In this document: one piece after another, positions 10,045 through 52,233 of the stretch | Position numbering within the stretch: the stretch's first letter is position 1 | Layout: each line of letters begins with the position of its first letter | Source of the DNA: Candidatus Kaiserbacteria bacterium RIFOXYD1_FULL_47_14 | GTDB taxonomy: Bacteria > Patescibacteriota > Minisyncoccia > Phycocordibacterales > Phycocordibacteraceae | Direction of reading: 5' to 3' | Length of the DNA stretch: 56,781 nt | Assembly (NCBI GenBank): GCA_001781915.1 | Contig: MFMU01000003.1 | Coordinates: 1,188 to 57,968 of the forward strand | The notes under the pieces: model-generated | Seen by the model: only the letters and a program-made list of their open reading frames with translations | The model's database searches: none | Told to the model about the DNA's origin: nothing | Made by a program: the position numbers and the translations under genes

Positions 10045-10120
10045 TGGAGCCGTCGGACAGGATTGAACTGTCGACCTCGTGCTTACCATGCACGTGCTCT
10101 ACCAACTGAGCTACAACGGC
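10045..10120 (-). tRNA. tRNA-Thr (anticodon GGT), CCA encoded
   Basis: The reverse complement GCCGTTGTAGCTCAGTTGGTAGAGCACGTGCATGGTAAGCACGAGGTCGACAGTTCAATCCTGTCCGACGGCTCCA folds as a cloverleaf. Anticodon loop is A-T-GGT-A-A. Confidence 0.9.
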
Positions 10121-14289: not shown

Positions 14290-14307
14290 GCGAATTATTA
14301 TACCACT

Positions 14308-14619
14308 TTATGCTGTCTGCGACAATTGGAGAATACTATTAAAATCGTCATCTTTCGAGGTTTTGTTTTTCCTCTCAAAACCGCACGCGACACAGCGATG
14401 GAGGATGGTATATTCCCCGCCGTCGAATTCAACGCCGACTGGTTCCATCGCGCCGCCGCAGACGGCGGCGCGATCGCCCGGATTCACATCAACATGCTTG
14501 CTCCAGAGGCATTTCGGGCAATGGTTAGTGTAGCCATTCCCCAGCACGAAGAACCCGCACCGCTCGCAGGTAAAGTCCTCGCTCGTTCTTTGGAATTTCT
14601 TTGTCGGGGCCATATCCAC
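14308..14619 (-). CDS. RNHCP-domain zinc-ribbon protein
   Basis: FTCERCG...YTNHCPKCLWSKHVD...CGG.MEP...HRCVACG matches the RNHCP-domain pattern as I recall it. Confidence 0.6.
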   Translation of the reverse strand: MDMAPTKKFQRTSEDFTCERCGFFVLGNGYTNHCPKCLWSKHVDVNPGDRAAVCGGAMEPVGVEFDGGEYTILHRCVACGFERKNKTSKDDDFNSILQLSQTA

Positions 14620-14674
14620 AGTGTCTCATTATGTTGACTTTCTAGTCATGGGGGTATAAGATTCATCTGTATTT

Positions 14675-15208
14675 CTATCGAAGAGTACCTCCGTGGGTTC
14701 CGTCCCTCGGCGGTGCTTTTCTTTTATACTCAAGCTTTGTTCGCAAATTGTCCATAAAACGGATCTTCTCCCGTGATGTTTGTCGCAAAAGGAACGAGCA
14801 ATTTTCGTAATCTGGACTCAACACTGTTTCTAGTTTTCCACTGTTATAGAGATGCTGTGCCAGGGAATAGAAATCCCCATCGCTTGAAACGATAATTGCG
14901 CGGTCGTATTCACTTATTTCAAGAACGGCGCGTAGAACGAGATCGGCATCAACATTCCCTTTTATCTTGCCATCACCATCAGGAATCACTGACTTGAAGA
15001 CGAGAACAAATCCTGCTTCTTGCAGGTTGTCGTATAATTTCTGGTTCAACGGCGAGAAGCCGATAAACATATATGCCTTTTGAACGCCATACTTCTCCGC
15101 GAGATAGACGCGGAATTTCCTGTAGTCCAACTTCCAACCCAGCTTCTGGATGCCGAGATTTAGGTTTTGACTGTCTATAAACGCGTAATTATTTTCTTTC
15201 TTTTTCAT
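14675..15208 (-). CDS. NYN-domain (LabA/DUF88-like) protein
   Basis: AFIDSQNL...NVDADLVL...IVSSDGDF, the acidic residues typical of NYN/PIN-like nucleases. Confidence 0.65.
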   Translation of the reverse strand: MKKKENNYAFIDSQNLNLGIQKLGWKLDYRKFRVYLAEKYGVQKAYMFIGFSPLNQKLYDNLQEAGFVLVFKSVIPDGDGKIKGNVDADLVLRAVLEISEYDRAIIVSSDGDFYSLAQHLYNSGKLETVLSPDYENCSFLLRQTSREKIRFMDNLRTKLEYKRKAPPRDGTHGGTLR

Positions 15209-15300
15209 ACTTTTTCATACTTTCTTCGATGTCTATTCTACCTTAAAATCTTCATTGAATTTTTTGTTGAGGCCATCTCTTTAGCTAGTATACAAAACAA

Positions 15301-15349
15301 CCCCGCACACTGAAGTGCGGGGCGTTCCGTAAGATGACATCTTACGGAA
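15301..15349 (-). terminator. twin hairpins downstream of 15355..15696
   Basis: TTCCGTAAGATG-a-CATCTTACGGAA (12-bp arms), then CCCCGCAC-actgaa-GTGCGGGG followed on the minus strand by TTGTTTTGT. Confidence 0.6.
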
Positions 15350-15354
15350 AATAA

Positions 15355-15696
15355 TTAGCTGCAATAAACAGCACCCAGAGTACCGACCTTCCCGCCATGC
15401 GCGGGATAAGCTTCAATGTGCCAGCCGTCGCAATCAGCGTACCGGGTCGCCTGCACGATCCAGCGGAAACCCTCTTTGTCGGGAATAACCTGGGAAACTC
15501 GCATTCTGAAAGCTTCTGTTCGCCATGTGCGGGCAAGCAATTGAAAAAAGTTACCGAGTTCGAGTTCAACTCTTGGTTCACCTTCTCCGATTTCATCGAA
15601 AAAGTTCTTTTTGAAAAAGTCACCCAGATACTCGATGGGTACATCGAACTTTTCCTTAAGGAACAGCAAGAACTTTTTCTCTTGTTCTTTGTTCAT
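15355..15696 (-). CDS. hypothetical protein
   Basis: 113-aa ORF with a terminator downstream. No recognised motif. Confidence 0.5.
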   Translation of the reverse strand: MNKEQEKKFLLFLKEKFDVPIEYLGDFFKKNFFDEIGEGEPRVELELGNFFQLLARTWRTEAFRMRVSQVIPDKEGFRWIVQATRYADCDGWHIEAYPAHGGKVGTLGAVYCS

Positions 15697-15803
15697 GACT
15701 GACTTCCTTCAAATTAAAGATCATGTTAGACAGTTTTCTTTTTCTAATATACCAAATGATACTGTCCTGTCAACCGCTGAAATTTCTTTGATATACTGAA
15801 TCT

Positions 15804-17189
15804 ATGGTACATAGCATACAGAATTTTGAGGCGCTTGCTTGCCCCGAGCCAGTCGATGGGGCGGAGAATGACTTGCGGCGGGATGCGCTCGAGATAGCCG
15901 AGGCAGGATATGCAGCAATAAATGTCGGCTCTGCTATCGAAAGAAAAATGAGTATTAAAAATGATGTCTTGCAGATTATGGACGGAACTTCTAAGGCGAC
16001 GCCTCAGACGAAAACCTACCACCTTGCGGGGCGGCGTGTATTTTTTGTCGGCATCGGCAAGTGCGCTCTGACGGCGGCAAGCGCGATAGAAAAACTCTTC
16101 GGCGATACGCTCACCGGCGGAATTGCCTTCGATGTCTCTGCCGAATTTTTGAGAAAGTCAGACATCCACCGCAACGGTGGATGTCTGACTTCCTCTTCAA
16201 AAATCGAGGTCTTCATCGGCACCCATCCTCTGCCGAGCGAAGTAAACGAACAGGCAACGAAGCGCATTATCGAATTTCTTTCTGATTGTCGCGAAGATGA
16301 TTTAGTCATCTTTCTTATTTCGGGCGGCGGTTCTACCCTACTCTGCTCGCCCGAAGCACCGATGACCCCTGCCGACGAGAGTGCACTTTTTAAAGAACTC
16401 ACCGCGCACGGAGCGACGATACAAGACATTAATACGGTGCGAAAGCATATCTCCAGCGCGCGCGGCGGCGGCCTTGCGCGCGCGGCCTATCCCGCTGAAA
16501 TTCTCTCACTCATTGTGTCTGATGTACCCGGAAACGATATCGCTTTCATTTCTTCCGGCCCAACCGTGCAGGATTCGTCAACGATTACTGATGCAAAAGA
16601 AGTTCTCGCACGCTATAACATCACTATCTCAAACATCACATTCATAGAAACGCCGAAAGAAGAAAAGTATTTTGAACGAGTAACCAACCTGCTCTTTCTT
16701 ACGAGTAAAGATGCGCTCGATGCAATGAAAGATGAGGCGGCGAAACGCGGATATGAAACCGAAATAGTGGACGATCATTTTTCTGGCGAAGCCAGAGAAG
16801 TTGGCCGCGCCGTTGTAGAAAAATTGCATGATGCATCACAAAAAACCGCATTGCTTTACGCCGGCGAAAGCACGGTAACCTTGAGGGAGGTCAGACCTCC
16901 CTCACAGGCAGGCGGACGCAATCAAGAAATAGCGCTTGCCTCGCTCGAAACCATTCTTGACGACGAAATTATTCTGCCCTTCGCTTCTGATGGCCACGAT
17001 AATACTGATTATGCCGGAGCAATTGGCGACAGTATCTCGCGAGCGCACGCGAGCGAGCACAATCTTTCAATCGCCGAATATATTGTTGCGCATCGTTCGT
17101 ATGAATTCTTTTCCATAACCGGCGACGCACTCAGCACTGGCTATACTGGATCAAACATATCTGACCTTATCATCGCGCTTAAAAAATAA
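15804..17189 (+). CDS. glycerate 2-kinase (MOFRL/DUF4147 family, GckA/TtuD-like)
   Basis: LISGGGSTLL, VSDVPGNDIAFISSGPT and GGRNQEIALA are motifs of MOFRL glycerate kinases. Confidence 0.8.
   Translation: MVHSIQNFEALACPEPVDGAENDLRRDALEIAEAGYAAINVGSAIERKMSIKNDVLQIMDGTSKATPQTKTYHLAGRRVFFVGIGKCALTAASAIEKLFGDTLTGGIAFDVSAEFLRKSDIHRNGGCLTSSSKIEVFIGTHPLPSEVNEQATKRIIEFLSDCREDDLVIFLISGGGSTLLCSPEAPMTPADESALFKELTAHGATIQDINTVRKHISSARGGGLARAAYPAEILSLIVSDVPGNDIAFISSGPTVQDSSTITDAKEVLARYNITISNITFIETPKEEKYFERVTNLLFLTSKDALDAMKDEAAKRGYETEIVDDHFSGEAREVGRAVVEKLHDASQKTALLYAGESTVTLREVRPPSQAGGRNQEIALASLETILDDEIILPFASDGHDNTDYAGAIGDSISRAHASEHNLSIAEYIVAHRSYEFFSITGDALSTGYTGSNISDLIIALKK
16155..16191. repeat. perfect 17-bp-arm palindrome with CAA loop inside the glycerate kinase CDS
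   Basis: AAGTCAGACATCCACCG-CAA-CGGTGGATGTCTGACTT. Encodes ..RKSDIHRNGGCLTS.. Confidence 0.9.
16882..16904. repeat. 11-bp-arm palindrome inside the glycerate kinase CDS
   Basis: TGAGGGAGGTC-a-GACCTCCCTCA. Encodes LREVRPPS just before the conserved GGRNQE. Confidence 0.85.
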
Positions 17190-17197
17190 TTTATTTT

Positions 17198-19585
17198 ATG
17201 AAAAACACGCACATACTTTGGATGAATAAAATCGGTATGGAAGATGTCCCTCAAGTCGGCGGAAAAAATGCCGCACTTGGAGAACTCATCCGTTCGGTGG
17301 TGCCGAAGGGCGTGCGCGTTCCGAAGGGTTTCTGCGTTACTGCTGACGCGTATTATTATTTTCTCAAACAGACCGGTCTCGATAATTTCATTGCAAAAAC
17401 GCTTGCTGGTCTCAACACTAAAAATTTCAAAGAACTATCGCGGTGCGGGAAGCTGGTGCGCGACGCCATACGCTCAACGCCACTTCCTGCAGATCTTGAA
17501 AAAGAAATTGCCATATCATACGCGCAGATGGAAAAAGAATATGGGAAGAATGTCGATGTGGCTGTGCGTTCGAGCGCGACCGCCGAGGATTTGCCGGGCG
17601 CGTCATTCGCCGGCGAGCATGAGACCTATCTGAATATTCGCGGAGCGGAGGATGTGGTGCGAGCCACTGTCTGGGCAATGTCTTCACTCTTTACCGACCG
17701 AGCTATTTCCTATCGTACTGACAAGGGCTTCGCGAACACAAAAGTAGCGCTCTCGGTTGGCGTACAGAAAATGGTTCGCTCTGACCTCGGCGCTTCTGGC
17801 GTTATGTTTACGGTGGATACTGAAAGCGGCTTCCGCGACCTTGTGCTTATCAACGCGGTGTGGGGCCTCGGCGAACTTATTGTGCAGGGTCATGTGACGC
17901 CTGACGAATATCTAGTGATGAAATCAAAACTCGGTAAAGCGAAGAATCCGATTATCGGCAAAACGCTGGGTGTGAAAAATAAAAAGATGCTCTACGCACA
18001 AAGAAAAACCGGCGTCATACAAACGAAGATTGTGGACACAAGCACGGCAGAACAGAATACCTTCGTCCTTTCTGAATCAGAAATCGATGAGCTCGCCCGC
18101 TGGGGAACGCTTATAGAAGAACATTACAGCAAACGCGCCGGGAAATGGACGCCGATGGATATGGAATGGGCGCGCGATGGAAAAACGAACGAACTCTACA
18201 TCGTGCAGGCGCGGCCCGAGACAGTACAGGCCGAACGGGATTTCTCGAAACTCATTGAATATACAGTGAGCGGTCAAGGAAAGGCACTGGCGCAAGGCAT
18301 TTCGGTCGGTTCGAAGGTCGCCGTCGGCACGACACGCGTTATTCTAGATCCAAAACAAATAAAACAATTTAAAAAGGGAGAGATACTCGTCACGACGATG
18401 ACCGACCCTGATTGGGAACCGATTATGAAGATGGCGTCGGCTATCGTTACCGACCGCGGCGGGCGCACGAGCCATGCCGCCATCGTCTCGCGAGAGCTCG
18501 GCCTTCCGGCAATCGTGGGCGCAGGCAACGCGACGCGCGTATTGAAGACGGGAATTATCGTCACAGTCGACACGACCGGCAGTGTAGGTATGATTACTGC
18601 TGGAAAAGCGAAAGTAACGACGCGCGAACATGATATCGGCACTCTGCCGGATACGAAGACGAAAATTATGGTGAATATCGCGTCGCCGGATATCGCTTTC
18701 GAGGACTCATTCTTGCCCGTGCAGGGCGTCGGGCTCGCGCGAGAAGAATTTATCATCGCTTCCAATATTGGCATTCATCCGCTCGCCATTCTTAATTTCA
18801 AAAAGCTCTCCCCGAAGTTGCGCACCGCTATTTCAAAGAAAATCACCGGATGGAAAAATCCGATTGACTTCTATGTCGACAATCTCGCGTACGGCATCGC
18901 AAAAATCGGCGCGGCATTTAGCCCGCGACCTGTCATCGTTCGGTTCTCTGATTTTAAGACCAATGAATACTCTACACTGCTCGGCGGCGAAGCGTACGAA
19001 CCGAAAGAAGAGAATCCGATGCTCGGCTGGCGCGGCGCCTCTCGTTATTATGATCCGAAATTCAAAGATGCGTTCGTACTGGAATGTCGCGCACTTGTGA
19101 AAGTGCGCGAGGAAATGGGTCTTTCCAATGTGATTCCTATGATTCCCTTCTGTCGCACAACTGTAGAAGCGGAGCAGGTACTCGGTATTATGAAGAAGAA
19201 CGGTATCAAGAAGCCGATCTATATGATGTGCGAGATTCCTTCAAACATTATTCTCGCCGAAGAATTTCTTGATCTCTTTGACGGCATGTCCATCGGCAGC
19301 AATGATCTCACTCAGCTCACACTCGGACTCGACCGCGATTCTGGCATCGTGACGCATATAGGGAATGAGAATGATGAATCGGTACGCGCGCTGATTAGTA
19401 TGATTATTCGTAAATGCGCGGCACGCGGAAAGTATCTCGGCATATGCGGACAAGGACCATCCGACCTCCCTGACTTCGCTGAGTTCTTGGTGAAAGAAGG
19501 CATTCCAAGTATGTCGCTCAATCCTGACTCGGTAGTGAAGACACTGGAACAAGTCGCAGAGATTGAAGAAAAACTCGCACAATAA
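17198..19585 (+). CDS. ppsA: phosphoenolpyruvate synthase (pyruvate, water dikinase)
   Basis: 795 aa. Phosphohistidine swivel motif GGRTSHAAIVSRELGLPAIVG. PEP-utilising C-terminal domain. Confidence 0.9.
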   Translation: MKNTHILWMNKIGMEDVPQVGGKNAALGELIRSVVPKGVRVPKGFCVTADAYYYFLKQTGLDNFIAKTLAGLNTKNFKELSRCGKLVRDAIRSTPLPADLEKEIAISYAQMEKEYGKNVDVAVRSSATAEDLPGASFAGEHETYLNIRGAEDVVRATVWAMSSLFTDRAISYRTDKGFANTKVALSVGVQKMVRSDLGASGVMFTVDTESGFRDLVLINAVWGLGELIVQGHVTPDEYLVMKSKLGKAKNPIIGKTLGVKNKKMLYAQRKTGVIQTKIVDTSTAEQNTFVLSESEIDELARWGTLIEEHYSKRAGKWTPMDMEWARDGKTNELYIVQARPETVQAERDFSKLIEYTVSGQGKALAQGISVGSKVAVGTTRVILDPKQIKQFKKGEILVTTMTDPDWEPIMKMASAIVTDRGGRTSHAAIVSRELGLPAIVGAGNATRVLKTGIIVTVDTTGSVGMITAGKAKVTTREHDIGTLPDTKTKIMVNIASPDIAFEDSFLPVQGVGLAREEFIIASNIGIHPLAILNFKKLSPKLRTAISKKITGWKNPIDFYVDNLAYGIAKIGAAFSPRPVIVRFSDFKTNEYSTLLGGEAYEPKEENPMLGWRGASRYYDPKFKDAFVLECRALVKVREEMGLSNVIPMIPFCRTTVEAEQVLGIMKKNGIKKPIYMMCEIPSNIILAEEFLDLFDGMSIGSNDLTQLTLGLDRDSGIVTHIGNENDESVRALISMIIRKCAARGKYLGICGQGPSDLPDFAEFLVKEGIPSMSLNPDSVVKTLEQVAEIEEKLAQ

Positions 19586-19587
19586 AT

Positions 19588-20859
19588 ATGCACATTGACC
19601 GCATTGAAGCCAAATCGATTCTCGACACGCGCGGGCGGCCGACGATAGAGACGACACTCTTTTCTGGAACGCTTGAAGCAACAGCGTCGGTACCTTCGGG
19701 GAAAAGCACCGGGAAACACGAAGCACTCGAGCTGCGCGACGCTGATGACAGCGTCGCGCAAGCCATAAAGAATGTAAATGGAGAAATTGCGACGGCGATT
19801 ACCGAGCGTGATTTCAATTCGCTCGATGAGCTTGATAATTTCTTGATCTCGCTCGACGGCACGCCGAATAAATCACGACTCGGTGCGAACGCGATTCTCT
19901 CGGTCTCGATTGCCGCGATGCGGCTTTCTGCACTGCAAGAAAATATGCCACTCTGGCAAGCAATCGCGAAGCGTGCAGGAACTACTCCTTCGACTCCTCG
20001 GCTTTTTGTTAATGTCATGAACGGCGGCGCGCACGCTGGCTTTCCCTCAAACAAGTTCGGAACAGGTAAACTTCCCTTCCAAGAATATCTCTTGGTTGTT
20101 GAAGGAAAAACGAGTGAGACATTCCCTATCGCACAAGAACTATTCGCGAAACTCGGCGAACTTCTGTGGAAGCCAGGCGTCCACAACAATTGTGGACGCC
20201 TGGCTTCCACAACATCGATGGGCGATGAAGGCGGTTATGCGCCGACCTTCGACACGCTCGAAAAACCATTCGAGCTTCTCGCCGAACTCGTTAAAGAATT
20301 CCCGAATACTTCAATCGCGATTGATGCGGCAGCGAGTGAGCTATTCCATGACGGCGTGTACCAGCTCCTCGGGAAATCGTATTCTCCCGACGAGCTCGCG
20401 GCAATTTATCGTGAGCTTGTCGAACGATTTTCTCTTCATAGCATTGAAGACCCGTTTGCCGAGAATGCAGGAACTGATTTTGCAAAGCTTACGGCCACAT
20501 TGAACAGCCCCTCGACTCCGCTCGGGGCAACGACACTAGTCGTTGGCGACGATTTAACTGTCACCAATCCCGCACGCATTATTGAAGCAGCAAAAAATAA
20601 AGAAATAAATGCAGTGCTAATTAAACCGAATCAAATCGGCACGGTCAAAGAAGCGCTCGAAGCAGTGAGAGAAACCTATAACGCCGGATGGGAGGTTGTC
20701 GCCTCGCATCGTTCGGGAGAGACGAGCGATACCTTCATCGCGGACTTCGCGTACGGTATCGGCGCACATGGTTTGAAAGCTGGTGGCTTCGCTCAGCCCG
20801 AGCGTCTTGTGAAATACGAGCGATTACTCGCCATAGAACACGAAGCAGAAACAAGATAA
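19588..20859 (+). CDS. eno: enolase, carrying a 15-codon palindromic insertion
   Basis: ILDTRGRPTIE, MGDEGGYAP, IKPNQIGT and SHRSGET motifs. Confidence 0.95.
   Translation: MHIDRIEAKSILDTRGRPTIETTLFSGTLEATASVPSGKSTGKHEALELRDADDSVAQAIKNVNGEIATAITERDFNSLDELDNFLISLDGTPNKSRLGANAILSVSIAAMRLSALQENMPLWQAIAKRAGTTPSTPRLFVNVMNGGAHAGFPSNKFGTGKLPFQEYLLVVEGKTSETFPIAQELFAKLGELLWKPGVHNNCGRLASTTSMGDEGGYAPTFDTLEKPFELLAELVKEFPNTSIAIDAAASELFHDGVYQLLGKSYSPDELAAIYRELVERFSLHSIEDPFAENAGTDFAKLTATLNSPSTPLGATTLVVGDDLTVTNPARIIEAAKNKEINAVLIKPNQIGTVKEALEAVRETYNAGWEVVASHRSGETSDTFIADFAYGIGAHGLKAGGFAQPERLVKYERLLAIEHEAETR
20166..20210. repeat. perfect 21-bp-arm palindrome with CAA loop (45 nt) in-frame in enolase
   Basis: GTGGAAGCCAGGCGTCCACAA-CAA-TTGTGGACGCCTGGCTTCCAC. 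The arms contain TGTGGACGCCTGGC, which is identical to the REP flanking 42741..43451. Confidence 0.95.
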
Positions 20860-26584: not shown

Positions 26585-26937
26585 TACCTCCTACTCGAAA
26601 GCCGGAACTGCGCAAACAAAGCAATCGTGCCGCCGAGATTGTCGCGCATGAAGCGGCGCAATTCATCGCACGCGAAGCAAGCAACGAATCACTTATCACC
26701 GTCATCCGCGCACAAAGCGTCGCCCACGGAGATCGTATGATGGTTTTCGTCAGCGTCTTCCCGGTCGAGAAAACGCGCGCCGCGCTCGCCTTCCTCGAGC
26801 ACCAGCGCGAAGCATTCTCGGATTATTTAAAAGTGCATGCGCGCCTTCGCCTTCCGCGCATCGACTTCCTTCCTGACAACGGCGAAGAGAGCGGCCAATT
26901 AGTAAACGAACTATCGAGAGGCCAGGGCGGGAATTGA
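26581..26937 (+). CDS. rbfA: ribosome-binding factor A
   Basis: Small basic protein overlapping the infB stop (ATGA). RbfA-like N-terminal segment. Its 3' end overlaps the antisense tRNA-Cys by 19 nt. Confidence 0.65.
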   Translation: MIPPTRKPELRKQSNRAAEIVAHEAAQFIAREASNESLITVIRAQSVAHGDRMMVFVSVFPVEKTRAALAFLEHQREAFSDYLKVHARLRLPRIDFLPDNGEESGQLVNELSRGQGGN

Positions 26938-26990
26938 ACCCGCGCATAGCGCTTTTGCAGAGCGCCGTGTTACCACTTCACCACCTGGCC
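26919..26990 (-). tRNA. tRNA-Cys (anticodon GCA)
   Basis: GGCCAGGTGGTGAAGTGGTAACACGGCGCTCTGCAAAAGCGCTATGCGCGGGTTCAATTCCCGCCCTGGCCT. Discriminator U. Confidence 0.85.
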
Positions 26991-27032
26991 CATAGTTAGA
27001 GAATAACAGAAATGTTACTATCATCAAAAGAT

Positions 27033-27122
27033 GCCGAGGTGGCGGAATAGGTAGACGCACAGGACTTAAAATCCTGAGAGGGCCTAAAAACCTTCATGTG
27101 GGTTCGATTCCCACCCTCGGTA
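27033..27122 (+). tRNA. tRNA-Leu (anticodon TAA), long variable arm
   Basis: GCCGAGGTGGCGGAATAGGTAGACGCACAGGACTTAAAATCCTG...GTGGGTTCGATTCCCACCCTCGGTA. Confidence 0.9.
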
Positions 27123-27130
27123 CTAGAAAA

Positions 27131-27257
27131 ATTTGTGGTCACAAATAATTCACTTGCCGTCGCAAGTGAATTTTCGCGACCCCGGCTCGCGGTTTTGCCT
27201 GCTGGCAAAACATCGCTGCGCCTCGCACAAGTAAAGAAACAGCATACTCTGTTTCTT
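27131..27257. other. hairpin-dense spacer between convergent tRNA genes
   Basis: Consecutive perfect stems: ATTTGT/ACAAAT, AATTCACTTGC/GCAAGTGAATT, CGCGA/TCGCG, GTTTTGCC/GGCAAAAC, AAGAAACAG/CTGTTTCTT. Confidence 0.7.
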
Positions 27258-27262
27258 TCATG

Positions 27263-27335
27263 TGCGCCCAGCAGGGCTCGGACCTGCGACCTTATCCTTA
27301 AGAGGGATCTGCTCTACCAACTGAGCTATGGGCGC
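27263..27335 (-). tRNA. tRNA-Lys (anticodon CTT); atypical T-loop
   Basis: GCGCCCATAGCTCAGTTGGTAGAGCAGATCCCTCTTAAGGATAAGGTCGCAGGTCCGAGCCCTGCTGGGCGCA. The T-loop reads TCCGAGC (C at position 55). Confidence 0.75.
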
Positions 27336-27463
27336 TGAAGCGAGGATAAACAAATGTGAGTCCTATTACATTTGTTTACTCCGAGTGAAGCGCTCATATC
27401 GAGTCATCGAAGATATGGGCGCCTAAAGAAAAATATAGCAGAACATAGTATGATTTGAAAGTC

Positions 27464-27492
27464 GCCCTTCTGCGCGTAAAGCTTCGAAGGGC
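27464..27492 (+). repeat. conserved hairpin immediately 5' of tRNA-Leu(TAG) (paralog of 12450..12478)
   Basis: GCCCTTCTGCGCGTAAAGCTTCGAAGGGC, 3 nt upstream of the tRNA 5' end. Confidence 0.7.
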
Positions 27493-27495
27493 ACG

Positions 27496-27577
27496 GCTGG
27501 GATGGCGAAATTGGTAGACGCACGAGCCCTAGGAGCTCGCGGGGCAACCCATGGAGGTTCGAGTCCTCTTCCCAGCA
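27496..27577 (+). tRNA. tRNA-Leu (anticodon TAG), long variable arm
   Basis: GCTGGGATGGCGAAATTGGTAGACGCACGAGCCCTAGGAGCTCG...GGAGGTTCGAGTCCTCTTCCCAGCA. The anticodon loop reads CCTAGGA (C at position 33). Confidence 0.8.
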
Positions 27578-36500: not shown

Positions 36501-36516
36501 ACCTATAAAATACCAT

Positions 36517-36539
36517 GCGCGGCCCGCTGCGGGCCGCGC
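36517..36539. repeat. GC-rich 11-bp-arm palindrome
   Basis: GCGCGGCCCGC-t-GCGGGCCGCGC, followed by the tandem decamer ATCAACACCC x2 (36541..36560). Confidence 0.8.
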
Positions 36540-36594
36540 AATCAACACCCATCAACACCCTTATAAAAATACCTTGATCTCCTATACCCACAAC

Positions 36595-36615
36595 TGTGGA
36601 CACTAAGTGTCTACA
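36595..36615. repeat. REP-like 21-nt palindrome, upstream flank of RAYT-like gene 1
   Basis: TGTGGACACT-a-AGTGTCTACA. Confidence 0.85.
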
Positions 36616-36641: not shown

Positions 36642-37334
36642 ATGGGGTACCGCGAAACAGGACTCGGCGCATATGTGCATGTTTGTAATCGCGGAGTAAA
36701 GAAGATGCCTATTTATCGTCACGAGACTGATTTGCGGCGTTTACATTCCCTCTTGTTCTATCTTAATCATAAAGAACCGATGCCGGATAATTGGACTAGA
36801 GATATTGAGGGAGGACTTAGTTCTCTGTCTTGGCCATCGTCATGGCAACCGCGCGAACCGATAGTGTCGATTCTTGCTTTTACACTTATGCCGAATCATT
36901 TTCATCTTTTTCTAAAAGAAATTACTGAAGGAGGGATCGCAAAATTCATGCATCGCGTTTCAATGGCGTATTCAAAGTTTATTAATCAAAAATACGGCGA
37001 AAGCGGACGTCTCTTTGAGGGTACATATAAATCACGAATTATTGAAGAAGAAACGGATTTCAAAAATCTTGCGGCGTATATTATGGTTAAAAATACTTTT
37101 GAATTATATCCTGGAGGATTAATGACCGCCTGCAGAGAATTTGAACCGGCATACGCGAGTGCGTTACATTATCCGTTTACCAGCTTAAAAGATTATGAAC
37201 ACTCTGAACACATATCGCCTATTTTAGACCGCGAACTTCTTGGTGAGCTCTTTGACAATTCTCACTCTTTTAAGAGTTTTGCTCAGGAATGTATGCTCCA
37301 TCGACTTGACGAACTCACCGAGCATCATTTGTAG
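36642..37334 (+). CDS. IS200/RAYT-like HUH (Y1) transposase, copy 1
   Basis: HUH motif LMPNHFHLFL. Tyr-helix AAYIMVKN. Flanked by inverted palindromes. Confidence 0.7.
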   Translation: MGYRETGLGAYVHVCNRGVKKMPIYRHETDLRRLHSLLFYLNHKEPMPDNWTRDIEGGLSSLSWPSSWQPREPIVSILAFTLMPNHFHLFLKEITEGGIAKFMHRVSMAYSKFINQKYGESGRLFEGTYKSRIIEEETDFKNLAAYIMVKNTFELYPGGLMTACREFEPAYASALHYPFTSLKDYEHSEHISPILDRELLGELFDNSHSFKSFAQECMLHRLDELTEHHL

Positions 37335-37350
37335 ACACTAAGTGTCCACA
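37330..37350. repeat. REP-like 21-nt palindrome, downstream flank of RAYT-like gene 1 (contains the stop codon)
   Basis: TGTAGACACT-a-AGTGTCCACA. Reverse complement of 36595..36615 except for the central base. Confidence 0.85.
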
Positions 37351-40423: not shown

Positions 40424-41104
40424 TTAAGGCGTTAATACCAGTATACTCCCATCGCGACCGATAAGATCTTTCTTCTTTAAGGTGAGTTTGTCTACTTTCT
40501 CGCTACCGTTCCCTGCTTCTTTCAAGAATGCTTCAAGCGCTTTTGACTGTCCGATACCACTCCAATGCATCGGTATGATAATCTTCGGCTCGAGCGAGAC
40601 CGCGAGCTCGTGCGCCTTTGCAGGAGAGAGAACGCCATCGTCCCCAATCGGCACGAAGAGCACATCTATTTCATCGATATTCTCTCGCGCTTCTTTCGAT
40701 AATTCTGCATCAGAAAGTGCTCCAAGATGTACGAGCGTCATATCTTCAAGTTCGACACTATATATTGTATTGACAAAACTTGGGGGTGAAACCCCCAAGT
40801 GATCTTTCGTAAGACCATAGTTGCTCTTAGAAAGGAATCCTTGGATAACAACGCCGGCGCGCTCGTATTCGCCGGGACCGGTAATAGCAAACGGTTTTTT
40901 GCCTGGCCTGAGTTTATTCGAAGGGTCGCCATACGCCACTTCTTCTACGCCATTCATATCCGGATGATCACGCGAAACGAGTGCAATATCCGCACCGAAG
41001 CGCACGGCGGGCATTGCCGACTTCTTGCTAATAGGGTCGAAAACAAGCGTTAAATCACCGAAAGTAATCTTGAAACATTGCCCGCCGTGATGCGTGATAA
41101 CCAT
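40424..41104 (-). CDS. MBL-fold metallo-hydrolase (UlaG/Lactamase_B_3-like)
   Basis: MVITHHGGQCFKI..LVFDP...SRDHPDMNG...IIPMHW. Confidence 0.65.
   Translation of the reverse strand: MVITHHGGQCFKITFGDLTLVFDPISKKSAMPAVRFGADIALVSRDHPDMNGVEEVAYGDPSNKLRPGKKPFAITGPGEYERAGVVIQGFLSKSNYGLTKDHLGVSPPSFVNTIYSVELEDMTLVHLGALSDAELSKEARENIDEIDVLFVPIGDDGVLSPAKAHELAVSLEPKIIIPMHWSGIGQSKALEAFLKEAGNGSEKVDKLTLKKKDLIGRDGSILVLTP
40778..40800. repeat. 10-bp-arm palindrome inside the MBL-fold CDS
   Basis: ACTTGGGGGT-gaa-ACCCCCAAGT. Shares GGTGAAACCCCCAAG with the trxB palindrome. Confidence 0.85.
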
Positions 41105-42693: not shown

Positions 42694-42714
42694 TGTGGAC
42701 GCCTGGCGTCCACA
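42694..42714. repeat. REP-like 21-nt palindrome, upstream flank of RAYT-like gene 2
   Basis: TGTGGACGCC-t-GGCGTCCACA. Confidence 0.9.
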
Positions 42715-42740
42715 AAGCGAAGCAATGTTAGGATGAAAAT

Positions 42741-43451
42741 ATGCGAAAAGAGGAATTTGCAACTGGTTCATATGTACATATAGTGAAGCGTGGAATACGC
42801 GGGTTGCCGATTGTTCGTGACGAAATTGACCGATTTCGGTTTTTGCTCATGCTCGCCCATTTCAATGATCAATTCATGTCTCTGAATTGGTATCGTGATT
42901 TAAAAGATGAGAATTTGCATAATTCTCTGCTGCGTCCGTCACACTGGCCGGCGCAAGAACGCCTTGTAAACATTATTGCGTTTTGTCTTGTTGAAAATCA
43001 TTTCCATTTAATTCTACAGGAACTTGCTGAAGGCAACATTGCTCGATTTATGCATCGACTTGGTACTGGAATGGCTAAACGGTTCAATGAACGATACGGC
43101 GAGCATGGTGCGTTATTTCAGGGACCTTATCGTGCAATAACAATTGACGACGACCGTTATTTTCGTTATGTAAGTGCCTATGTGCAAGTAAAAAATGCCA
43201 TTGATATGTATCCCGGCGGAAAGGATATCATTAAAAATGATTTTAATCGCACATACAATTGGATATGTTCTTATCCGTACTCAAGTATTGGGGACTATAC
43301 TGGCGATTTCAATAGAACGATTGTAGATACAACATTTCTTTCCTCATTGTTTACACCTGGCGAATATCGAGAATTTGCAAAAGATGTAATTCTCGGACGC
43401 TATCAACCTGACGACATAGACAAGAAACATCAATCAAAATTCTTTGATTAA
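42741..43451 (+). CDS. IS200/RAYT-like HUH (Y1) transposase, copy 2
   Basis: HUH motif LVENHFHLIL. Tyr-helix SAYVQVKN. Paralog of 36642..37334 (shared ..ARFMHR....K.FN..YGE.G.LF.G.Y.. and MYPGG). Confidence 0.7.
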   Translation: MRKEEFATGSYVHIVKRGIRGLPIVRDEIDRFRFLLMLAHFNDQFMSLNWYRDLKDENLHNSLLRPSHWPAQERLVNIIAFCLVENHFHLILQELAEGNIARFMHRLGTGMAKRFNERYGEHGALFQGPYRAITIDDDRYFRYVSAYVQVKNAIDMYPGGKDIIKNDFNRTYNWICSYPYSSIGDYTGDFNRTIVDTTFLSSLFTPGEYREFAKDVILGRYQPDDIDKKHQSKFFD

Positions 43452-43454
43452 TCC

Positions 43455-43475
43455 TGTGGACGCCAGGCGTCCACA
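43455..43475. repeat. REP-like 21-nt palindrome, downstream flank of RAYT-like gene 2
   Basis: TGTGGACGCC-a-GGCGTCCACA, the exact reverse complement of 42694..42714. Confidence 0.9.
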
Positions 43476-46203: not shown

Positions 46204-46664
46204 TGAGTGTCGACATAAAGAACAACACGCGGCGCCGTCTGACGGCGCCGCGAAACGCATTTTCAATACTCGCGAAAGAAGTGCTTCCCCAGTGGGACAT
46301 CTCGCTCGTTTTTGTCGGACCAAAAAAAGCAAAAACACTCAACGAAACATTACGCAACAAGACATACATTCCGAATGTTCTTTCGTATGCAGTTGGCGAC
46401 AAAAACGGCGAAATTTTTATTTGTCTCCACGAAGCCGCGAAACAAGCTCCTGCTTACAATTTGAACCTTACATCTTACACCTTGCTTTTATTTATCCACG
46501 GTTTATTACATCTCAAAGGGTGGGCACATGGTGTTAAGATGGAGAGATGCGAACAAAAACTGTTGGCGCGATTTGTTTGTTCTTATGTCGCGACGAGTAG
46601 CAACCGGAATCGATATCGGCACCTACCAGATAAAAATGGTCGTGGTCGAGGAACTCACAGATAA
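46203..46664 (+). CDS. ybeY: rRNA maturation endoribonuclease YbeY
   Basis: Zinc motif HGLLHLKGWAH. TAATG overlap with rpsU. The 3' tail overlaps ftsA. Confidence 0.75.
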   Translation: MSVDIKNNTRRRLTAPRNAFSILAKEVLPQWDISLVFVGPKKAKTLNETLRNKTYIPNVLSYAVGDKNGEIFICLHEAAKQAPAYNLNLTSYTLLLFIHGLLHLKGWAHGVKMERCEQKLLARFVCSYVATSSNRNRYRHLPDKNGRGRGTHR

Positions 46665-51288: not shown

Positions 51289-52233
51289 ATGAATGACCTC
51301 ATTATTATTGGCGGCGGGCCTGCGGGTATCGCTGCGGGCGTGTATGCAGCGCGGAAACATCTGAAGACGATTCTTATCTCGGGAGAGATTGGCGGACAAT
51401 CGATTGTATCAGATGATATAGAAAATTGGATCGGCACGCCGAAAGTGAGCGGTGCTGACCTCGCGAAATCGCTACGCGCGCATCTTGATGCAGTGAAATG
51501 CGATATCGTAAAGTTAGCGCTTGGCGAGCGAGTTGTCTCGCTAGAATCACTTGGCGGTGAAACCCACAAGTTGCTTGGGGGTTTCACCGCCAAAACGAAA
51601 TCGGGGAAAGACTTCTCTGCGAAAGCTATACTCATCGCCTCGGGCGCGCGCCGCCGGAAGCTTGATGTCCCCGGTGCCGATAAGTTTGAAAATAAAGGCG
51701 TAACCTACTGCGCTTCCTGCGATGGTCTTCTCTTCGCAGACAAAGATGTCGCGGTCATCGGAGGCGGTAATGCCGGCTTCGAGACCGCGCTCCAGCTCCT
51801 CGCCTATGCAAAGTCAGTAACGCTTATCCATCGACATCAGGAGTTTAAGGCCGATCCTGTCTCTGTTGAAAAAGCTCTCGCCCACTCGGCTATGAGCGTG
51901 ATTCGGAATGCCGAACCGGTTGAAGTGATGGGCAAACAATTTGTGACTGGTCTGAAATATAAAGATGTCATTTCAGAAGAAGTGAAAGAACTCGCGGTCT
52001 CTGGCATCTTCGTCGAAGCGGGCGTGATGCCGAACACTGATTTTGCCGAAGGACTTGTCGAGTTCGATTCGGTGAAGCGCGTAAAGACCGACCCGCGCAC
52101 CCAGCGCACGAGCGTCGAGGGCATCTGGGCAGCTGGCGACTGCACCGACGAACTCTACCATCAGAACAACATCGCCGCCGGCGACGGCGTTAAAGCGGCA
52201 GAAGATATCTATCTTTGGATAAAGAAACACTAA
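51289..52233 (+). CDS. trxB: thioredoxin-disulfide reductase carrying a palindromic insertion
   Basis: IIIGGGPAGIAAGVYAAR, redox CASCDG, GGGNAGFETA and AAGDCTD. Confidence 0.9.
   Translation: MNDLIIIGGGPAGIAAGVYAARKHLKTILISGEIGGQSIVSDDIENWIGTPKVSGADLAKSLRAHLDAVKCDIVKLALGERVVSLESLGGETHKLLGGFTAKTKSGKDFSAKAILIASGARRRKLDVPGADKFENKGVTYCASCDGLLFADKDVAVIGGGNAGFETALQLLAYAKSVTLIHRHQEFKADPVSVEKALAHSAMSVIRNAEPVEVMGKQFVTGLKYKDVISEEVKELAVSGIFVEAGVMPNTDFAEGLVEFDSVKRVKTDPRTQRTSVEGIWAAGDCTDELYHQNNIAAGDGVKAAEDIYLWIKKH
51550..51593. repeat. 44-nt palindrome in-frame region of trxB
   Basis: TTGGCGGTGAAACCC-aCAAG-ttg-CTTGg-GGGTTTCACCGCCAA. Encodes LGGETHKLLGGFTAK. Confidence 0.9.

Follow-up and report, generated by a model that had tools for sequence, protein, structure and literature searches.

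A probable REP/RAYT system with palindromes inside coding genes in the candidate phyla radiation bacterium Candidatus Kaiserbacteria RIFOXYD1_FULL_47_14

A stretch of 56,781 nucleotides (nt) from contig MFMU01000003.1 of the groundwater bacterium Candidatus Kaiserbacteria bacterium RIFOXYD1_FULL_47_14, referred to here as the window, probably carries a REPtron. This would be a vertically inherited, domesticated enzyme of the Y1 HUH type resembling RAYTs (REP-associated tyrosine transposases), flanked by cognate repetitive extragenic palindrome (REP) sequences and accompanied by a small dispersed population of REP doublets forming hairpins (REPINs). No other system exemplifies as well as REP/RAYT a domesticated transposase that is inherited vertically and has a population of non-autonomous elements of its own. 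To our knowledge, work on it has been confined almost entirely to proteobacteria and cyanobacteria, with their roomy intergenic space. The source genome belongs to the candidate phyla radiation (CPR), as an earlier note made from the letters of the window had supposed. The REPtron concept is that of Ton-Hoang 2012 and Messing 2012, as cited in PMC6006769.

The gene designated RAYT-A (42741..43451, plus strand) encodes a Y1 HUH transposase-like protein of 236 amino acids (aa), identified by Pfam, alignment and Foldseek. The open reading frame (ORF), its NHFHLIL and AYVQVKN motifs and the two palindromes beside it were all located where the earlier note had placed them. The HUH motif consists of H87 and H89 in NHFHL, the catalytic-type tyrosine is Y147 in AYVQVKN, and a C-terminal extension of ~85 aa follows. 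H87, H89, Y147, K151 and N152 were invariant in an alignment of 23 family sequences, and the protein scored 34.2 bits against Pfam Y1_Tnp (PF01797; cut-off 23). Searching the Protein Data Bank (PDB) with phmmer gave nothing relevant, and the match of the family profile was also too weak; therefore, structure prediction and Foldseek were needed. The AlphaFold2 (AF2) model (pLDDT 76, pTM 0.79) had as its top Foldseek match 4ER8_A (E = 7e-5, probability 1.0), the structure of the Escherichia coli RAYT in complex with a REP hairpin, with the TnpA proteins of IS608, ISDra2 and IS200 as runners-up. The Pfam match, the conserved HUH and Tyr residues and a fold nearest to that of the E. coli RAYT all supported the proposed assignment to the Y1 HUH enzymes.

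Searching 5.8 billion proteins gave 258 homologs of RAYT-A, nearly all of about 236 aa, and the organism names, where given, were Kaiserbacteria, Taylorbacteria, Parcubacteria or Paceibacterota. Among 1.84 billion representatives, the family profile collected 228 clusters of 50% identity with an E-value limit of 1e-30, and 6301 when the limit was 1e-10. Some CPR homologs are named 'REP element-mobilizing transposase RayT' by JGI. RAYT-A and its paralog in the window (see below) are both hypothetical proteins at NCBI (OGG93976.1 and OGG93973.1) and 'Transposase IS200-like domain-containing' in UniRef.

RAYT-A is flanked by a 21-nt 'double-foot' palindrome, REP-A. The upstream copy TGTGGACGCCTGGCGTCCACA, readable as TGTGGACGCC-T-GGCGTCCACA (42694..42714, no strand), lies 26 nt before the ATG, and the downstream copy TGTGGACGCCAGGCGTCCACA, with a central A (43455..43475, no strand), lies 3 nt past the TAA stop, between the convergent RAYT-A and Pth genes. 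The two copies are exact reverse complements of each other, with the central base as the sole difference, and as single-stranded DNA (ssDNA) each has a folding energy of -10.2 kcal/mol (z about -5.7). Allowing up to three mismatches, the REP-A pattern matched four times in the window and not once in 100 dinucleotide shuffles. Two of these four matches were one-mismatch copies within the enolase gene (20165-20185 and 20191-20211), and the palindrome is thus present beyond its two gene flanks, as had been claimed. Scanning the window with Rfam at gathering thresholds gave seven tRNAs only and no RNA family at any palindrome. Two candidate interpretations of REP-A were rejected. A consensus scan flagged both sites as terminators, but their tails are weak and the same sequences occur within genes. 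Stop codons are absent from all six frames of REP-A, but present for REP-B and the other flavours; for a 21-mer this is not improbable, and it was treated as compatible with selection and dropped as evidence for it.

A hairpin scan of the window detected a second pair of palindromes about 6 kb upstream of RAYT-A. They flank RAYT-B (36642..37334, plus strand), a 230-aa paralog with the HUH motif in PNHFHLFL and the tyrosine in AAYIMVKN, which shares 38% identity with RAYT-A. The upstream REP-B TGTGGACACTAAGTGTCTACA (36595..36615, no strand) is situated exactly 26 nt before the RAYT-B ATG, while the downstream REP-B TGTAGACACTAAGTGTCCACA (37330..37350, no strand) overlaps the TAG stop at 37332-37334. 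The transposase had been described as single-copy, which does not apply to a window with two paralogs, each with its own REP; this arrangement agrees with the rule that each REP family has one RAYT. The RAYT-B ortholog at the related locus L044 is preceded by a compensated REP variant, TGTGGACACCGGGTGTCTACA, likewise 26 nt before the ATG, and the gene order MTase-RAYT-GyrA is kept there.

A total of 11 loci were compared: the two of the window (winA and winB), eight orthologous RAYT-A loci (L038, L007, L008, L039, L040, L009, L041 and L010) and one RAYT-B locus (L044), the nine relatives being from other Kaiserbacteria/Paceibacteria. All 11 carried a double-foot palindrome of ~21-23 nt located 20-27 nt before the ATG, the distance being exactly 26 nt in six of them, both window paralogs included. 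Another palindrome followed in all 11, at positions from just over the stop codon to 31 nt past it. The flanking palindromes were GTGGACATCTGACATCCAC in L007 and L008, GAGGAAGTCAGACTTCCTC in L039, GAGGGACGTTAAACGTCCCTC in L009, GTGGATATCGGATATCCAC in L041, GTAGAAGTCAGACTCCTAC in L010 and GTGGACACCGGGTGTCTAC in L044. Their feet were GTGG, GTAG or GAGG, and at least eight REP flavours were distinguished, with cores that vary by protein lineage yet stay palindromic. In an alignment of 14 variants, 97% of the cells were paired and six of the 11 stem pairs had changed on both sides; none of 500 shuffles reached the observed value, and slid controls paired at 48% at most. The bracketing of the gene by cognate hairpins, noted earlier for RAYT-A, thus extends to both window paralogs and the nine further loci, and the association is conserved in all 11, with the REP co-varying with the protein.

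Gene order around RAYT-A was also conserved. The window, L038, L007 and L009 share the arrangement S1-RAYT-A-Pth, and RAYT-A orthologs showed identities of 81, 73 and 62%, compared with 80, 76 and 76% for the neighbouring Pth and 74% for LepB. In synteny and divergence, RAYT therefore appears to behave like a housekeeping gene. In five lineages (L008, L039, L040, L041 and L010) the RAYT gene is found at other loci. L044, which has RAYT-B but lacks RAYT-A, has an S1-Pth junction without the RAYT unit; its 47-nt spacer (15841-15887) is a textbook bidirectional intrinsic terminator composed of an A-run, a GC hairpin and a T-run, which makes it an 'empty site' with respect to the RAYT-A unit.

That the upstream REP keeps a fixed distance from the ATG suggests that it may also take part in controlling expression of the RAYT gene. 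Reading by eye covered five of the 11 loci: the two window genes (hexamer at 42729-42734 and 36630-35), L007, L008 and L044. In all five, a TAnnAT hexamer (TAGGAT, TATAAT, TAAGAT or TAGTAT) precedes the ATG by 6 nt, at positions 12-7 nt before the RAYT start. Together with the REP spacing, the hexamer hints at a leaderless RAYT transcript with a promoter overlapping the REP. A promoter using the 3' foot of the REP as its -35 element was considered separately and rejected, the scan backing it for REP-B alone (TCTACA, 17 nt, AATAAT).

The two REP-A copies in enolase form a REPIN-like doublet (20165..20211, plus strand) of two inverted asymmetric units with a 5-nt spacer. It lies in frame in the enolase ORF (19588..20859) and encodes WKPGVHNNCGRLAST. 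Folded alone, each unit contains one mismatch; paired with one another, the two give a perfect stem of 22 bp (-29.6 kcal/mol as ssDNA, z = -12.2). The doublets carry the REPIN signature (PMC3116915), because they keep a perfect long hairpin despite mismatched single units. One unit, GTGGACGCCTGGCTTCCAC, is identical to the REP flanking the 81%-identical RAYT in L038. The enolase site reads TGTGGAAGCCAGGCGTCCACA-ACAAT-TGTGGACGCCTGGCTTCCACA in the window; the identical position is occupied by TGAGGAAGTCTGACTTCCTCA-GCAAC-TGCGGAAGTCTGACTTCCTCA in L042 and has no insert in L043. Among 106 related enolases, 84 had no insert at this site and 12 had linkers of 13-23 residues belonging to at least five flavours. 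In the AF2 model of enolase, the segment encoded by the doublet is a low-confidence loop after helix 175-194.

Some other features of the enolases were observed. The length of Kaiserbacteria enolases ranges between 390 and 440 aa owing to at least five further sites with variable inserts, and several of these other inserts are visibly palindromic at the peptide level (KEFFES...ALEKFF; QGSTL...QGRTL). No palindrome is obvious in two additional segments of the window enolase, FPSNKFGT (residues 152-159, low pLDDT) and LNSPSTP. In L042, the relative with a different REP flavour in enolase, IF-2 is followed by a phage-type integrase and a Prim-Pol gene (14295-18212); this region looks like an integrated mobile element and has no counterpart in the synteny of the window.

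Glycerate kinase (15804..17189) contains two in-frame elements. The first is a 45-nt REPIN-like doublet of another flavour, GAGAAAGTCAGACATCCAC-CGCAAC-GGTGGATGTCTGACTTCCTC (16151..16195, plus strand), which encodes LRKSDIHRNGGCLTSS. The second is a single 23-nt REP, TGAGGGAGGTCAGACCTCCCTCA (16882..16904, plus strand), represented by a compensated variant in the L042 ortholog and missing from the L043 ortholog. At the doublet site, the window and L042 read GAG[A/G]AAGTCAGACATCCAC-CGCAAC-GGTGGATGTCTGACTTCCTC, and L043 has an A-type core, GAGGACGCCAGGCGTCCAC-AGCAGC-TGTGGACGCCTGGCGTCCTC. The cores differ at six of 21 positions per unit, four of these making up two compensated stem pairs, and in alignments judged by eye the coding DNA around the switched sites looks much less diverged than the cores. 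Judged from these alignments, the core differences point to probable replacement, conversion or repeated targeting, not drift.

A third palindrome family, without the GT[AG]G foot, was represented twice. A 43-nt doublet of the CTTGGGGGTGAAACCCCCAAG type (51551..51593, plus strand) lies in frame in a thioredoxin-reductase (TrxB)/AhpF-like gene; it is present in L007 and absent from L009, in which the protein is 7 aa shorter. A single perfect palindrome, ACTTGGGGGTGAAACCCCCAAGT (40778..40800, minus strand), lies inside a Lactamase_B_3 ORF (40424..41104). Comparison with orthologs and PDB homologs showed that the in-frame palindromes of enolase, glycerate kinase and the TrxB-like gene are insertions missing from some orthologs. 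All five non-flanking elements of the window are located inside ORFs, in a window of about 87% coding sequence. Unlike the extragenic repeats expected of a REP/RAYT system, the non-flanking elements here are intragenic.

Further copies were detected in related DNA. Scanning metagenomes for REP-A turned up 24 stretches, of which many were doublets, and related contigs contained more than 15 distinct sites. At least seven metagenomic REP sites were inside Pfam-confirmed genes (CysRS, PolA, GAPDH, KsgA, transketolase, GH130 and MiaA). Further doublets were present in L011, L017, L023, L029, L031, L034, L037, L010, L042 and L043. Scanning genome contigs for the 21-mer yielded one site in a CPR-like metagenome-assembled genome (the doublet of L011) and two likely chance matches (Chloroflexia and Solirubrobacterales). 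The derived elements proposed to exist inside coding genes are therefore represented by the enolase doublet and by the other in-frame sites of the window and of metagenomic contigs.

The window is rich in hairpins generally: 46 were counted (stem of at least 10 bp, at most one mismatch, loop of at most 7 nt), compared with 6-10 in shuffled sequence, and this excess of strong hairpins reaches beyond the REP families. Palindromes of another style, GC-rich and perfect or nearly so (CGCGCCGCCGCAGACGGCGGCGCG, TGCGCGGCCCGCTGCGGGCCGCGCA and CGCGGCGCCGTCTGACGGCGCCGCG), were located at 14445-14476, 36516-36540 and 46228-46252, and a sequence like CGCGCCGCCGCAGACGGCGGCGCG is also found upstream of the L043 glycerate-kinase ortholog; these palindromes may represent either an additional repeat family or terminators. 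A cluster of four tRNA genes, distributed over both strands, occupies 26919-27577, with hairpins between them (27145-27174 and 27347-27378), and a 31-nt imperfect inverted repeat (27327-27357 / 27368-27398) overlaps the end of one tRNA. Three further tRNAs were found at 10048, 11551 and 12373.

Taken together, we regard the REPtron as the probable explanation. By analogy with E. coli TnpA-REP and IS608 TnpA, the RAYT enzyme would recognise the folded 21-nt hairpin plus the GT[G/A]G foot on ssDNA and cleave through Tyr147, with the metal held by His87 and His89. Rejoining of the DNA would then copy, move or overwrite REP doublets. The surviving copies would mostly be in-frame landings in tolerant surface loops of housekeeping enzymes, with 7-16 extra residues read through, and they would be mostly in frame in genes because only about 13% of the sequence is non-coding. 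REP binding, cleavage and mobilisation by RAYT are all transferred from the characterised relatives and may be expected here, and autoregulation is suggested by the REP spacing.

Several observations weigh against this explanation. RAYT-A is not a member by the curated NCBIfam test, because it scored 26.1 bits against the RAYT equivalog NF047646, its sole NCBIfam match, where the cut-off is 80; the RAYT-specific profile search that had been proposed thus came out negative. The match of the family profile to the PDB was marginal (ISDra2 TnpA, E = 0.055, HUH aligned), and the Foldseek margin between RAYT and IS200-type TnpA was slight. Copy number looks low, with one non-flanking REP-A site in the 57-kb window and, in related loci of 20 kb each, 0-2 extra cognate copies. 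For the flavours at 16151, 16882, 40778 and 51551, the window contains no RAYT. Palindromic covariation would be expected of a symmetric binding site in double-stranded DNA as well as of a hairpin. Finally, the flanks are inverted in winA (by the central base), L007 and L039 and direct in L038, L008 and L041; inverted orientation, which had been taken as defining, amounts to one or two bases in such near-perfect palindromes and is overstated as a defining feature.

A more specific proposal is possible though doubtful. In CPR of the Kaiserbacteria type, the REPIN-RAYT system might persist mainly inside coding sequence, with doublets held in fixed in-frame loop 'slots' of core enzymes and their cores repeatedly overwritten (converted or re-inserted) to the hairpin of the resident RAYT. 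If so, orthologous slots would carry different REP flavours in sister lineages, and an HUH enzyme would drive concerted evolution of translated hairpins and lineage-specific variation of protein length in ultra-small genomes.

An alternative to the REPtron is that the 780-bp palindrome-gene-palindrome unit is an autonomous IS200-like insertion sequence, with the palindromes as left- and right-end hairpins and the intragenic doublets as miniature derivatives. The unit is about the size of IS200, its fold equals that of IS200/IS608 TnpA, the gene and its flanks occupy different loci in the five lineages named above, the S1-Pth junction of L044 is empty and carries a clean bidirectional terminator instead, and two diverged RAYT copies lie 6 kb apart in the window. 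However, near-identical RAYT duplicates were seen neither in the window nor in the related loci, the two paralogs are 38% identical, and most homolog clusters were seen on few contigs. Synteny is kept over orthologs of 62-81% identity that diverge like the neighbouring housekeeping genes. One palindrome is present at both ends, not distinct imperfect left- and right-end hairpins in the same orientation. None of the IS200 transposase models in NCBIfam matched RAYT-A at E <= 1, the Pfam Y1_Tnp model that it does match is common to RAYTs as well, and the protein has 236 aa with conserved extra regions, compared with 125-152 residues in the matching solved IS200-type TnpA chains. We therefore consider an IS200-like element unlikely.

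The least probable reading is that the palindromes are host regulatory or structural sequences (terminators, mRNA-stabilising hairpins or symmetric operators), the HUH protein being co-opted otherwise and the intragenic copies being old, fixed and under selection on the hairpin or peptide: it would account for the 26-nt spacing at six loci, both paralogs included, for the terminator-like position of the downstream REP between convergent genes and the terminator-like consensus call at both REP-A sites, for covariation that does not separate a hairpin from a symmetric double-stranded site, and for the apparently low copy number, but no convincing T-run follows the REPs, the same sequences are in frame in at least eight unrelated enzymes where a terminator or operator makes no sense, the sites are polymorphic among close relatives (filled, empty or of another flavour), the doublets preserve the long hairpin and not each unit, and REP sequence follows the lineage of the adjacent HUH protein. 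Both alternatives are less likely than the REPtron.

A conserved, co-varying REPtron in CPR would mean that such a system can persist in extremely reduced genomes as palindromes that are read through within genes. It would provide a concrete origin for the numerous small lineage-specific insertions in CPR core proteins and link protein-coding palindromes of the Rickettsia type to an identifiable candidate enzyme. The 26-nt spacing and the switching of flavours are testable handles on how RAYTs act. Literature searches found nothing that connects CPR, Patescibacteria or Parcubacteria with RAYT, REP or protein-coding palindromes.

The earlier note referred to REP/RAYT systems as described in proteobacteria, which understates their range: RAYT/TnpA-REP, double-foot REPs and in-frame intragenic REPs are known across many phyla (PMC6006769, PMC3733652, PMC5581495). 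Already published for other phyla are REPtrons, GT[AG]G feet, double-foot REPs and in-frame REP insertions (PMC6006769), intragenic REPs and the Rickettsia palindromic elements (RPEs) (PMC3733652), and housekeeping-like behaviour of RAYTs (PMC5581495). The survey in PMC6006769 used complete genomes, and CPR genomes were outside it.

IS200/IS608 TnpA (IS200/IS605 family) shares with RAYT-A the fold, the catalytic motifs and, presumably, the chemistry of hairpin-recognising ssDNA transposition. Unlike IS200/IS608, the present system has no multicopy near-identical elements, and it has an identical palindrome at both ends, conserved synteny and a longer protein.

The RPEs of Rickettsia and the intragenic GTAG/CGTC REPs (Ogata 2002; Di Nocera et al. 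2013, PMC3733652) resemble the elements described here in being in-frame palindromes that add loop residues to conserved genes in a small reduced genome. Their dimers also encode about 15-30 aa, and DNA polymerase I is among the hosts. In contrast to the RPEs, a cognate transposase gene with the same palindrome flanks is found nearby, in a CPR host, and most of the dispersed copies detected here are intragenic, instead of a minority of them.

The Pseudomonas REPIN-RAYT system (Bertels & Rainey 2011, PMC3116915; Bertels et al. 2017, PMC5581495) has in common with ours the inverted doublets with a long hairpin as the apparent replicative unit, the compensatory changes that keep this hairpin, a separate REPIN family for each RAYT and apparently vertical inheritance. 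The doublets here are 43-47 nt long with 3-6-nt spacers, whereas the conserved ends of SBW25 REPINs are 71 or 110 bp apart, and they are intragenic, whereas Pseudomonas REPINs are extragenic. Populations appear much smaller here; frequencies of the flanking 16-mer would resemble those of RAYT Groups 1 and 4 (12-14), not those of Groups 2 and 3 (57-140).

E. coli TnpA-REP (4ER8), the REPtron enzyme, shares the Y1 HUH fold (the best Foldseek match), the HUH and Tyr motifs, cognate REP flanks with a GT[AG]G foot, apparently a single gene for each REP family, and syntenic, seemingly housekeeping-like behaviour. Identity to RAYT-A is about 11% in the structural alignment, and RAYT-A falls below the NCBIfam equivalog cut-off. 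RAYT-A differs from the E. coli protein by a ~30-aa insertion between the first helix and the second strand and by the ~85-aa conserved C-terminal extension. The REPs also differ from E. coli REPs and bacterial interspersed mosaic elements (BIMEs), being short near-perfect double-foot palindromes, mostly intragenic and apparently numbering tens at most instead of hundreds.

TnpA-Y1 subclass 2.4 (Quentin et al. 2018, PMC6006769) shares the double-foot geometry (5' GT[AG]G ... C[TC]AC 3'), frame-preserving REP insertions and a scattered distribution over phyla. Compared by its published description, the HuH-Y distance of this subclass is long and variable (median 88 aa) and a C-terminal core extension is lacking, while the proteins here have 58-60 aa and a conserved extension. 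Insertions inside tnpA itself are known in subclass 2.4, and none was seen in RAYT-A or RAYT-B. Relative to these systems, the protein differs as a subfamily below the cut-off of the curated RAYT model that combines an HUH-to-Tyr distance of about 60 aa and a conserved C-terminal extension with REP association, and the elements differ in their very compact doublets, their intragenic predominance and the switching of flavours at orthologous sites.

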